A stretch of 26,718 nucleotides of DNA from a virus (lineage: Duplodnaviria; Caudoviricetes), in IMG/VR virus record IMGVR_UViG_3300030376_001348, positions 1-26,718 of that record; one strand, given 5' to 3'. Shown here piece by piece: positions 8,342 through 25,157 of the stretch. The position numbers and the translations under genes are program-made. The notes under the pieces are model-generated. The model was not told the DNA's origin. It saw only the letters and a program-made list of their open reading frames with translations, and did no database searches. The first letter of the stretch is position 1. Every line of letters begins with the position of its first letter.

Positions 8342-9460
8342 TTAAGCTACGTCTTTGAATAGCAAGTGATATGAAGGAGGTCCAAAGTCGTATCCCATTT
8401 CCATGTAGATAGCTTTAGATACTCTTGCATAATCATCTTGGTCTATGTCTCTAACAAACACTGTTCCATATCCTGGGATATTTGTGAACACTGGTTGTAT
8501 AAACGCAAAGTCTAAAATAAATGCACTATTTGCAGGCATGATATTAGGGTCAATGACCATCATACCAATTGAACCGAATGGTGTAACAATAGTGTCAATA
8601 TCTATACCAGCAACATTTCTGTCTCTAGGTATGATTGCACCTGTAATACCAACAGTTCCCTGTAGTAGTTCTTTATTTAAGTCAAGTAGTTGCTTAGGAG
8701 TAACGCAAAGTACAGGAGACTGCATTGGTGCGTGAGCATCATATAGTCTCTTAAGTCCTTCTGAGATTGAATCCCATGAAAGTACTTTGTCTGCGCCACC
8801 TCCATCGCCATCAGCATCACAATAATGTACGTTACCGCCTACAAATGTAGGTGCAACTGTATTGTTAGCATTAGCGTTTAGTGCGCAATACTCTTTAAGT
8901 CCACGCATTTCTCTTGTACCAGCACCTGGTGTTGTATTAGCACCATCTGCGAATGTACCGTTGAATGCGAACCACTCTACTTCTCTAGCCACTTTTTCAA
9001 GTGCCATAGACATTTGCTCTGCGAACTCATCAACAATTGGATTTCCACCAGCAAGTGCTAGTTTATCTCCAGCTGTTACAGTTCCATCACCATCAGAGCT
9101 GTTTGCAATGTTTGCAGACAAGTCGAATGGATTTTGGTTTTGATAAGTTGCCATAGCTGTGTAGGTCATCTTAATTCCTTTATGGAAGATTTGAGTAACG
9201 CCTGTATAAGCGACTCTATCTCTACCAAGATACTCTGTTGGCTGCGCACCTTCTTGAGCTTTTGTTGGCTCAGAAGAAACTACAGCACTATCAGCAGCTT
9301 GGATTTGCCAGAAAGTAGATTGTAAAACCTTACCTCCGTTTAATCCTCCTGTTGCTGACAAGAAAGGAGTTCTTTGACCACCTACACGGAATAACTCACC
9401 AGAAAAGTTATTAATCTTCTGGGAGTAAATTGCATTGTTTGTCAGTGATATTGCTGACAT
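8342..9460 (-). CDS. Major capsid protein (HK97 fold; resembles the DUF5309/SU10-type family)
   Basis: 372 aa; TPFLS, TQIF and TPFGSI motifs; strong GGAGG RBS; follows the scaffold; downstream terminator. Confidence 0.85.
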   Translation of the reverse strand: MSAISLTNNAIYSQKINNFSGELFRVGGQRTPFLSATGGLNGGKVLQSTFWQIQAADSAVVSSEPTKAQEGAQPTEYLGRDRVAYTGVTQIFHKGIKMTYTAMATYQNQNPFDLSANIANSSDGDGTVTAGDKLALAGGNPIVDEFAEQMSMALEKVAREVEWFAFNGTFADGANTTPGAGTREMRGLKEYCALNANANNTVAPTFVGGNVHYCDADGDGGGADKVLSWDSISEGLKRLYDAHAPMQSPVLCVTPKQLLDLNKELLQGTVGITGAIIPRDRNVAGIDIDTIVTPFGSIGMMVIDPNIMPANSAFILDFAFIQPVFTNIPGYGTVFVRDIDQDDYARVSKAIYMEMGYDFGPPSYHLLFKDVA

Positions 9461-9470
9461 AATATACCTC

Positions 9471-9494
9471 CGTATTAAATTGTCGTATTAAATT
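9471..9494 (-). repeat. Tandem 11-bp direct repeat (sense AATTTAATACG x2) abutting the MCP Shine-Dalgarno
   Basis: + strand cgtattaaatt at 9471-9481 and 9484-9494. Confidence 0.9.
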
Positions 9495-9495
9495 A

Positions 9496-9963
9496 TTACT
9501 TATTGTTTTTCTGGTTTTCAATAAGCCCTAGCTTTGCTGCTAAGGAATCCTTAACAGAACCATTCTTTAGAATGTTTGCTAACTGCTCATCTACGCCAGC
9601 AGGTACATCTGGTACTGAATTTGCATCAAGTGCAGCTACTCTAGACCTTGCATCGTCTTGAATCACTGGCTCAGGTACAGATTGTGCTTCTTCCTGTACT
9701 TGAGTAGTAGCTTCATAACCATACTCATCTTTAGCAAACTGGGAAATAGACTCAATGTCTACTGGTCCATCATACACTTGCTTTAATGCTTTACCGAAAC
9801 CATTGTCTGTTTGTAATCCCAACTTACCAAAAACATTATTTAGCTCTTTATCTTTAAAAGATGCCAATTCTGCTTCTAGTTTCTTAAGCTGTTCATCTTT
9901 ACGTTCAACAGTCTCACGTAATTGTTTTACACCATGTTCTTGCGGTGCATCAAATTCTTCCAT
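9496..9963 (-). CDS. Capsid scaffolding protein
   Basis: 155 aa, acidic, N-terminal coiled coil, directly upstream of the MCP, GGAGG RBS. Confidence 0.75.
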   Translation of the reverse strand: MEEFDAPQEHGVKQLRETVERKDEQLKKLEAELASFKDKELNNVFGKLGLQTDNGFGKALKQVYDGPVDIESISQFAKDEYGYEATTQVQEEAQSVPEPVIQDDARSRVAALDANSVPDVPAGVDEQLANILKNGSVKDSLAAKLGLIENQKNNK

Positions 9964-9984
9964 TTTGTACCTCCACTATGTGTT

Positions 9985-10158
9985 AACCTGTCAGATAAGA
10001 CCATAGGAATCTTACCGTGGTGCTACCTAATGCACTTGACTTATTTCTCTGGTAGCTTCAAGCTATAAGTCCATTACTCTACGGTTTTTAATACGAGCTT
10101 TCTACGTAGGCTTTGAAAGCTGAGTGCAGGTCTATTAGCGGACCACGCAACGCTTAAT
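9985..10158 (-). ncRNA. Candidate structured cis-regulatory leader RNA with several pseudoknots
   Basis: At least eight complementary segment pairs within ~170 nt downstream of a TATAAT (see findings). Confidence 0.65.
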
Positions 10159-10162
10159 GTCT

Positions 10163-10168
10163 ATTATA
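10163..10168 (-). promoter_or_regulatory. -10 element TATAAT for the scaffold/capsid transcript
   Basis: Perfect TATAAT just after the upstream stop codon and immediately before the structured leader. Confidence 0.6.
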
Positions 10169-24345: not shown

Positions 24346-24364
24346 TTAACTATCTTCCTTTAGA

Positions 24365-24412
24365 TGTTTGTATAGTGAGAATTATATGGTATAGTCCTGT
24401 TTATTACAAACA
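24365..24412. promoter_or_regulatory. Back-to-back bidirectional promoter flanked by an 8-bp inverted repeat
   Basis: Minus-strand TATAAT (24381-24386) abuts plus-strand TGGTATAGT (24387-24395); TGTTTGTA 24365-72 pairs with TACAAACA 24405-12. Confidence 0.6.
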
Positions 24413-24430
24413 CTTAACACAAGTATTTTG

Positions 24431-24586
24431 TTACAGGTGAAGTTGCAATCGGGATGCGGAAAGCTGCTGACTGGCGAGACAGTACACTAGAAAGACAAAG
24501 GCAGTACCCAAGGACTCAAGAACTTGTTAGGTCAAACATCTACCCCTAATGCCCGCTAACGCCCGTACTTACTGGGGTTTCTGTAA
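24431..24586 (+). ncRNA. Candidate structured non-coding RNA divergent from terL
   Basis: GC-rich island with no credible ORF; closed by UUACAGG/UCUGUAA; internal hairpins with purine-rich loops; possible pseudoknot. Confidence 0.55.
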
Positions 24587-24617
24587 AGAATTACCAGCAT
24601 ATATTTCTAGACATACG

Positions 24618-24623
24618 TATAAT
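24618..24623 (+). promoter_or_regulatory. Possible -10 element TATAAT for the early transcript
   Basis: Perfect hexamer just upstream of the hairpin series; no clear -35. Confidence 0.45.
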
Positions 24624-24701
24624 ATAGAGACAGGTCAGGTTAACATATGGTAGTCAAAGACTATACTATGACCAATAAAAGAATTAACCTACTAAATTTT
24701 C

Positions 24702-24759
24702 TATATACTGTATCTTACCTTCCAGACTTCTGGAAGTCAGGTAAGATACTTAGTATATA
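24702..24759 (+). repeat. Bulged hairpin 1 (TCCA bulge, GACTTC/GAAGTC)
   Basis: tatatact-gtatcttacct-[tcca]-gacttc-tg-gaagtc-aggtaagatac-[tt]-agtatata. Confidence 0.85.
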
Positions 24760-24839
24760 CAGTTAAATAAAACAGTATGTAGTCTATTTAAGTTCCCTTA
24801 CTGCCTAATGATTTCCTATACAATATAATAAACTATGAT

Positions 24840-24874
24840 ACGTTCTCTCCCGACTACAAAGTAGTCGAGAACGT
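24840..24874 (+). repeat. Bulged hairpin 2 (TCCC bulge, GACTAC/GTAGTC)
   Basis: acgttctc-[tccc]-gactac-aaa-gtagtc-gagaacgt. Confidence 0.85.
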
Positions 24875-24895
24875 CTCGAAGAAAGGATAACTATA

Positions 24896-25027
24896 ATGTT
24901 TAACTGTATAAAATGTGATATGAATATGTGGAGTGATGAGATACTTGAGAATAAAACTTGTGAACATCATTTTCCATATATGGATATACAAGAACCTATT
25001 GAGTTAGGTCACTCAGAATTATCTTAA
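24896..25027 (+). CDS. 43-aa Zn-finger-like early protein
   Basis: MFNCIKCDMNMWSDEILENKTCEHHFPYMDIQEPIELGHSELS (CxxC...CxxH); GAAAGGA RBS. Confidence 0.7.
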   Translation: MFNCIKCDMNMWSDEILENKTCEHHFPYMDIQEPIELGHSELS

Positions 25028-25097
25028 TTTATACATATCTTAAAGTCTGTCCTTCCGACTTCTGAGAGTCGGACAGACTTTTGGATATATATATAAA
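25028..25097 (+). repeat. Bulged hairpin 3 (TTCC bulge, GACT/AGTC)
   Basis: aaagtctgtcc-[ttcc]-gact-tctgag-agtc-ggacagacttt (25042-25081) with AT-rich outer pairing. Confidence 0.85.
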
Positions 25098-25157
25098 TAT
25101 ATGTATGTCAGCTATAAATAATCAATTATAAAATAGATTAAGAAAGGAGATTATACT

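Follow-up and report, generated by a model that had tools for sequence, protein, structure and literature searches.

In the account of PMC11339067, the coat-replicase Min Jou helix of phage MS2 has a strength of about 8.7 kcal/mol and works by removing a standby site. Long-range coupling in the rplJL operon leads, as outlined in PMC6728339, to a fivefold excess of the downstream protein. Among candidate elements linked to phage scaffold genes, the supplement of Fremin et al. 2023 lists DNAVirus_5306, a 101-nt element found upstream of marine scaffold genes and drawn from 18 marine sequences, in 3 of which a phage-scaffold domain lies within 25 nt; in this it resembles the locus described here. 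Its covarying bases number 2, and with only 101 nt it is too short for the long-range helices described below (PMC10690425). Here we report, in the mRNA of a dsDNA phage, what comparison of related loci identifies as a real multi-pseudoknot leader with covarying long-range contacts. As far as searched it is undescribed, the literature search having found no description of this leader element.

The DNA analysed, called the window throughout, is a stretch of 26,718 nucleotides from a virus of the Caudoviricetes and is the virus record itself (IMG/VR IMGVR_UViG_3300030376_001348), which is linear and 63% complete. Besides a terminase and several large ORFs, its minus strand carries the following features:

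10163..10168, minus strand: TATAAT, putative -10 box, just past the stop codon of the upstream gene; near-invariant in alignment A2
9974-9970, minus strand: GGAGG, scaffold Shine-Dalgarno (SD) sequence, 1 nt past pseudoknot 4
9496..9963, minus strand: 155-aa ORF, likely capsid scaffolding protein (stop codon 9498-9496), preceding the capsid gene; PHROG 7813, unknown function
9467..9471, minus strand: GGAGG, SD sequence of the capsid gene, read from the sequence; GGAGGT invariant in alignment A2
8342..9460, minus strand: major capsid protein; PHROG 1328 major head protein, Pfam SU10_MCP (E 1e-41)

The 155-aa ORF is likely the scaffold, judging by its position before the capsid gene and by a weak Atlas lead: its nearest named Atlas clusters are scaffolds at 0.89-0.90, to be taken as a lead only, and a comparison with Pfam gave no family above the cut-off. 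An intrinsic-terminator-like hairpin lies 3' of the capsid gene (8319-8295, minus strand). Elsewhere, about 800 nt at 24346-25157, with a strand switch before the terminase gene, hold no ORF of 50 aa; the pseudoknot module described below was looked for there and not found. The only hints of a host are capsid homologues, found in actinophages (24-28% identity) and on two contigs that belong to a single Actinomycetota MAG. The host was not assigned to Ca. Actinomarina because whiB, looked for in five related records, was missing from all five; the description of Actinomarinales phages in PMC7771536 draws no tie to the present phage. Mycobacteriophage Bernal13, with a capsid homologue of 27% identity, was set aside as a model system because the gap upstream of its scaffold gene, only 68 nt, is too short for the pseudoknot array.

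For comparison, 279 loci were gathered; with the window included, 17 truncated or unparsed loci dropped and duplicates removed, 142 remained (L062 was added to the set by hand). By leader they fell into type A, that of the window (n=66, many near-identical), type B (n=35), type C (n=33) and others (n=8). Two of the last group, L066 and L255, match the type-A pattern; the rest of their leader differs and they are without the spacer arm. A further 82 loci, among them 11 too short, 38 duplicates and 11 of other types, yielded 22 new type-A loci, and 35 distinct loci of a type D (L447-L516) came in addition to the 142-locus set. Leader types were found swapped among phages with 70-81% identical capsids (L051-L056, L065-L067), which suggests that leader and scaffold may be exchanged as a block module.

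The leader (10154-9976, minus strand) fills the interval between the -10 box and the scaffold SD with four predicted tandem H-type pseudoknots:

10126..10154, minus strand: pseudoknot 1, stems 10154-10151/10140-10137 and 10148-10141/10132-10126; 3/4 and 2/6 pairs changed on both sides (28 sequences)
10079..10121, minus strand: pseudoknot 2, stems 10121-10116/10101-10096 and 10109-10105/10083-10079; covariation
10022..10071, minus strand: pseudoknot 3, stems 10071-10067/10042-10038 and 10056-10051/10027-10022; 2/5 and 4/6 pairs changed on both sides
9976..10016, minus strand: pseudoknot 4, 7/7 and 3/5 pairs changed on both sides; ends 1 nt before the scaffold SD

The structure comes from an unbiased conserved-helix scan together with pair counts made in 28 of the 66 type-A loci. 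Over the 49 leader pairs, 98.3% of cells were paired in these 28 loci, against 28-42% with the partners slid; both-sided changes occurred in 23 of the 49 pairs, with at least one in every one of the eight local stems. Each unit has two crossing stems, each covarying, as expected of a tandem H-type array, and comparison across relatives establishes the four pseudoknots as predicted. Plain minimum free energy (MFE) folding of the leader was unremarkable (z -0.48), as would be expected of folding that leaves out pseudoknots. A module recurs in pseudoknots 2 and 4, where a G past a 1-nt bulge is a possible pairing partner for an invariant C that precedes stem 2; this C..N-G arrangement is kept in 66/66 loci for pseudoknot 2 and in 65/66 for pseudoknot 4, where the partner G is the first base of the scaffold SD. 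The same C/G module recurs in types B and C. L281, a distant relative of higher GC content and a single sequence, has the same C..G-N-G module before its SD, and its leader UCCGGCCU is complementary to AGGCCGGA over the scaffold stop (about 1951-1958 and 2372-2379).

Covariance models of Rfam 15 gave no match to the window at the gathering score, only two chance matches at E of about 6, neither in the leader, and blastn of the leader against GenBank phages gave no match. Part of the leader may already be catalogued as DNAVirus_5306, a comparison drawn from supplement rows alone (PMC10690425). A search of the literature on exoribonuclease-resistant RNA turned up nothing relevant to phages. The leader may bear a resemblance to such RNA.

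Transcription likely starts at about 10156. The promoter scan did not list TATAAT at 10163..10168; among the matches listed, those from four seawater RNA libraries include contigs or loose ends that break off at 10141-10154, which hints only weakly that transcripts begin there. A role in mRNA decay or processing would place the 5' pseudoknots as a block to a 5'-3' exonuclease, with a long-range clamp that shields or positions a cut near the spacer, so that capsid mRNA would outlive scaffold mRNA. Pseudoknot 1 does begin a few bases past the likely start site, the RNA ends being known from contigs alone; we consider this role improbable, and return to it with the sister leaders.

The preliminary description of the window had noted a repeated motif in the 35-nt spacer between the scaffold and capsid genes (9495-9461, minus strand) and its complement in the leader. 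Both are there as claimed: AATTTAATACG occurs at 9494-9484 and at 9481-9471, and the linker TCGTATTAAA (10096-10087) is the exact complement of TTTAATACGA (9492-9483). Copy 2 had been said to reach the SD, which is right in that it overlaps GGAGG (9471-9467) by one base and needs correction as to the extra U-G pair, which uses the second G. Nor is the linker free, as its description as single-stranded had implied; in pseudoknot 2 it takes up loop 3 and the final base of stem 1. The features concerned are:

10087..10096, minus strand: UCGUAUUAAA, 5' arm of helix 1, formed in pseudoknot 2 by loop 3 and the end of stem 1; in covariation with copy 1 of the spacer
9483..9494, minus strand: spacer copy 1, 3' arm of the long-range helix 1, just past the scaffold stop codon; covaries with the leader
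9471..9481, minus strand: spacer copy 2, overlapping the first SD base; full form lineage-specific, full in 3/66

The rarity check that had been proposed was run: the window has 3 occurrences of TTTAATACG where 0.15 would be expected, and none of 100 shuffles reached 3; the whole record, being the window, holds the same 3 matches. With one mismatch allowed, the motif is at chance level in the window (9 against 9.9 expected). A short local stem at 9475-9463 may close the capsid SD in a GGAG loop, with at least 4 bp in 27/66 type-A loci.

The arms of helix 1 lie about 600 bases apart and span the scaffold gene. With the register picked by best pairing, the five core positions are paired in all 66 type-A loci; in the 22 further loci, many of them close kin, the register was taken from the motif of the first set and all 22 keep six core pairs. 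Three columns show both-sided changes (C-G 39, U-A 25, U-G 2; U-A 46, C-G 18; A-U 45, U-A 12), and the long-range RNA pairing across the scaffold ORF that had been postulated passed this covariation check for copy 1 in both sets. On a tree of scaffold DNA, the first column changes three times per side and never in the opposite direction; among these changes are that of L041 relative to its sister L025, a clean case, and that of L079 relative to its clade. These 3 change pairs (sign test p 0.25) are too few for significance, and the other two columns are weaker, at 1.4 of 3 and 0.2 of 2 pairs. In a control for kinship, none of 445 other variable downstream columns matched either tested leader column in at least 62/66 loci, against 64/66 at the cognate position. 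Duplex energies averaged -10.0 kcal/mol for cognate and -6.2 kcal/mol for non-cognate pairs; the best linker duplex sits in the spacer in 54/66 loci, and the cognate linker is the best in 53/66. Energy alone is a weak discriminator, since on unrelated spacers of types B and C the best of nine type-A linkers still attain -8.3 to -8.5 kcal/mol. On this comparative evidence, helix 1 is very probably real.

The non-Watson-Crick cells of the helix 1 core comprise 13 G-U and 1 A-G, with no A-C, which favours RNA over DNA. This bears on the suggestion that the repeats are three DNA operator sites, one of them inverted. The three 9-mers are indeed identical in this genome; across relatives, the sites change together so that pairing rather than a consensus is kept, and 13 of the 14 mismatches are G-U on the mRNA strand. 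Elsewhere in five related records the 8-mer stands near control level (2-5 matches per record, the two arms included, against 0-3 for controls) with no genome-wide recurrence, whereas operators would call for a fixed, strand-independent consensus recurring at other promoters. We regard the operator explanation as hardly credible.

The preliminary description further proposed that the linker switches between copy 1 as a decoy and the SD-adjacent copy 2. In this genome both copies pair with the linker almost equally well (-8.4 and -8.0 kcal/mol), and 44/66 loci keep at least five consecutive pairs at the copy-2 register, two SD Gs counted. Against this, copy 2 is complete in only 3/66 loci (9 bp in 2 more), comes within 1 kcal/mol of copy 1 in only 5/66, pairs with a mean duplex energy of -4.6 kcal/mol where copy 1 has -10.0 kcal/mol, and fails to track the leader at the covarying columns. 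Because copy 2 is rarely complete and does not covary, the decoy switch is no feature of the family and is very improbable as a mechanism; copy 2 probably arose by recent local duplication and would be dispensable for the mechanism. A role of the pairing in setting the scaffold:capsid ratio, as also proposed, is plausible.

The unbiased scan of type-A loci gave as its top leader-to-downstream helix a second contact, present in 65/66 loci, with arms about 400 bases apart:

10033..10039, minus strand: UCAAGUG, 5' arm of helix 2, formed in pseudoknot 3 by loop 3 and the end of stem 1
9626..9632, minus strand: CACUUGA, 3' arm of helix 2, at Ala111-Leu112-Asp113 inside the scaffold ORF
9773..9780, minus strand: copy of CAAGUG within the ORF (Gln-Val63), a possible competing partner for 9632-9626; helix in 62/66

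Leu112 is CTT in 66/66 loci, and neighbouring codons are similarly frozen. Val63 is likewise GTG in 66/66, a codon used for only 108 of 1536 Val residues in the capsid genes. Changes in helix 2 are of the G-U-preserving kind only, none of them both-sided; by comparison, the predicted helix is under constraint at the nucleotide level. Another helix internal to the ORF, GAAUUUG/CAAAUUC (53/66), was set aside for its little covariation and its lack in a distant clade.

Sister leaders make other contacts. In all 35 type B loci, a site in the ORF about 185 nt before the scaffold stop is the partner of the linker that precedes pseudoknot 2, and the helix runs to 16-18 bp through stem 1 of pseudoknot 2 in at least 30/35 (e.g. 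L065, L056). Five of its columns are fully compensated, with amino-acid changes (e.g. GIR, RLQ, GIQ); on the scaffold tree there is one change per column, and the case rests on about two events. Counts of 5-8 changes on the capsid tree were discarded, being inflated by module exchange. For mRNA stability alone, such amino-acid changes would seem a high price, which speaks against the decay role. The type B helix would displace stem 1 of pseudoknot 2, and the ACAAG thus freed can pair with CUUGU near the SD in 32/35 loci. An anti-SD hairpin covers the capsid SD in 32/35 type B loci, in the same slot as the type-A spacer arm, so that the slot points to control of capsid initiation.

Type C (33 loci) has a short spacer in which an SD-covering structure is absent; a long-range pairing of loop 3 near the end of the ORF, strong in some loci, absent in others and without clean covariation, is suggestive only. 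In the 35 loci of type D, pseudoknot 2 is retained and its loop hardly differs. No spacer partner for this loop was found in type D, the duplex being no better than -4.3, and scans of the 35 loci for a conserved long-range helix found none; because type D keeps the loop in this way, the loop core must be conserved for other reasons too. Within the last 48 nt before the start, 26/35 type D loci (one probably spurious) have a GNRA-capped hairpin just before the capsid SD, with covariation in the stem. It resembles a protected 5' end, as the decay role would have it; that it substitutes a tetraloop-receptor contact for the paired one is speculation. In L255, a pseudoknot-2-like stem-1 strand CCUAUUGU pairs with the spacer ACAAUAGG and reaches the SD (-10.8 kcal/mol); its relative L066 has no such pairing.

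We tentatively favour the reading that helix 1 couples capsid-protein synthesis to completed translation of the scaffold, in the manner of the MS2 Min Jou helix. A helix to a site past the scaffold stop would keep the capsid initiation region poorly accessible, and a ribosome finishing the scaffold gene would melt helix 1 and free that region. Counted from the first base of the scaffold stop codon, the spacer arm starts at -1 to +15 nt, where a terminating ribosome would reach and melt it; it ends 5-17 nt before the capsid SD and 16-31 nt before the start, in the region where a 30S subunit would load. Refolding over so long a range would be slow after melting and would allow several fresh capsid initiations per round of scaffold translation, giving an excess of capsid protein while capsid without scaffold would be avoided. 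During the same ribosome passage helix 2 would open sooner, and it would more likely act on the leader itself. Coupling of capsid initiation is favoured by the location of the arm together with the SD-covering hairpin of type B.

Several observations weigh against coupling. The conserved register never covers the SD; the covariation offers few independent events (no more than 3 pairs at the best column); type D keeps the loop without a spacer partner, and type C has its short spacer without an SD-covering structure; helix 2 lacks both-sided change and has an alternative partner in the ORF. The uncovered SD, which becomes base-paired when the spacer folds on itself in 3/66 loci only, would suit activation instead, with closure of the loop bringing the scaffold stop and the capsid start beside the leader and ribosomes being handed to the capsid or the scaffold start. 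We give this only a slim chance, as type B has an SD-covering hairpin in the same slot and a terminating ribosome would be expected to melt the helix.

The type B helix, ending about 185 nt before the stop, fits control of the scaffold better than control of the capsid, and control of the scaffold by both long-range helices, somewhat unlikely in our estimate, stands close behind coupling. Here the distal sites, once transcribed and free of ribosomes, would invade pseudoknots 2 and 3, refold the leader and alter access to the scaffold SD, either as a folding timer or through a site stabilised by free scaffold protein (autoregulation). Both type-A helices begin within a local stem 1, helix 1 reaching further into stem 1 of pseudoknot 2 in 27/66 loci, and the type B helix takes the whole 5' strand of that stem and excludes it. 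The end of pseudoknot 4, 1 nt before the SD, fits as well; the recurring C..G-N-G module may serve as a tandem site for protein binding, and the N-terminus of the P22 scaffold has been described as implicated in translational autoregulation (bioRxiv 10.1101/2022.12.13.520362). In type A, however, the route from pseudoknot 2 or 3 to the SD remains hypothetical, and the scans gave no conserved partner for pseudoknot 4. Coupling and scaffold control could also coexist, one per helix.

Set beside the known systems, helix 1 resembles the MS2 Min Jou helix, as described in PMC11339067, in being a short helix over hundreds of bases, of similar strength, with its 3' arm near the downstream start, and, under the coupling we favour, in being melted by ribosomes on the upstream gene. 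Unlike in MS2, where the 5' arm lies inside the upstream ORF, the 5' arm here is a pseudoknot loop in an untranslated leader, so that only arrival at the stop codon, or refolding of the leader, could open helix 1; moreover, this would be a coupling in the mRNA of a dsDNA phage. With rplJL (PMC6728339) and infC-rpmI (PMC1888825), as outlined there, it shares a long-range pairing or pseudoknot beside the downstream initiation region, and an arrangement that can yield an excess of the downstream protein. It differs from ribosomal-protein and ATPase operons in having no sequence or Rfam likeness to them and in that four tandem local pseudoknots supply the arms. By analogy, the phage helix would function most like the MS2 Min Jou helix and the rplJL and infC-rpmI couplings. 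Its 3' arm adjoins the downstream initiation region, as in the Min Jou/UTNI type; it is not classed as a member of the long-range coupling class because its 5' arm lies outside the upstream ORF, the 3' arm abutting the stop codon instead. The post-transcriptional control at the scaffold gene proposed here has a likeness in P22, as described in the preprint bioRxiv 10.1101/2022.12.13.520362. The P22 comparison is one of analogy. The P22 scaffold gene, too, precedes the coat gene, and P22 is not known to have a pseudoknot array or long-range helix there.

In its widest form, the proposal is that the scaffold mRNA is one machine, in which three or four tandem pseudoknots, assembled from a repeated module, make contact with the capsid spacer and the distal end of the ORF, sense the passage of ribosomes or free scaffold protein, and set the scaffold:capsid stoichiometry. 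This proposal is unlikely; if true, the contacts would have been rewired in sister lineages, as a spacer arm, an arm in the ORF at a cost in amino acids, an anti-SD hairpin or a GNRA hairpin. Scaffold and coat protein must be present in a set ratio for capsids to assemble, and how dsDNA phages fix this ratio at the mRNA level is little understood. The leader adds, in a group of marine phages, an RNA family absent from Rfam 15, and gives a defined structure that is open to mutation and for which nature supplies compensatory alleles, among them leader CGUAUU with spacer AAUACG and leader UGUACU with spacer AGUACA. It is also a clear case in which predicted RNA pairing constrains synonymous codons and amino acids 400-600 nt from the pairing partner.
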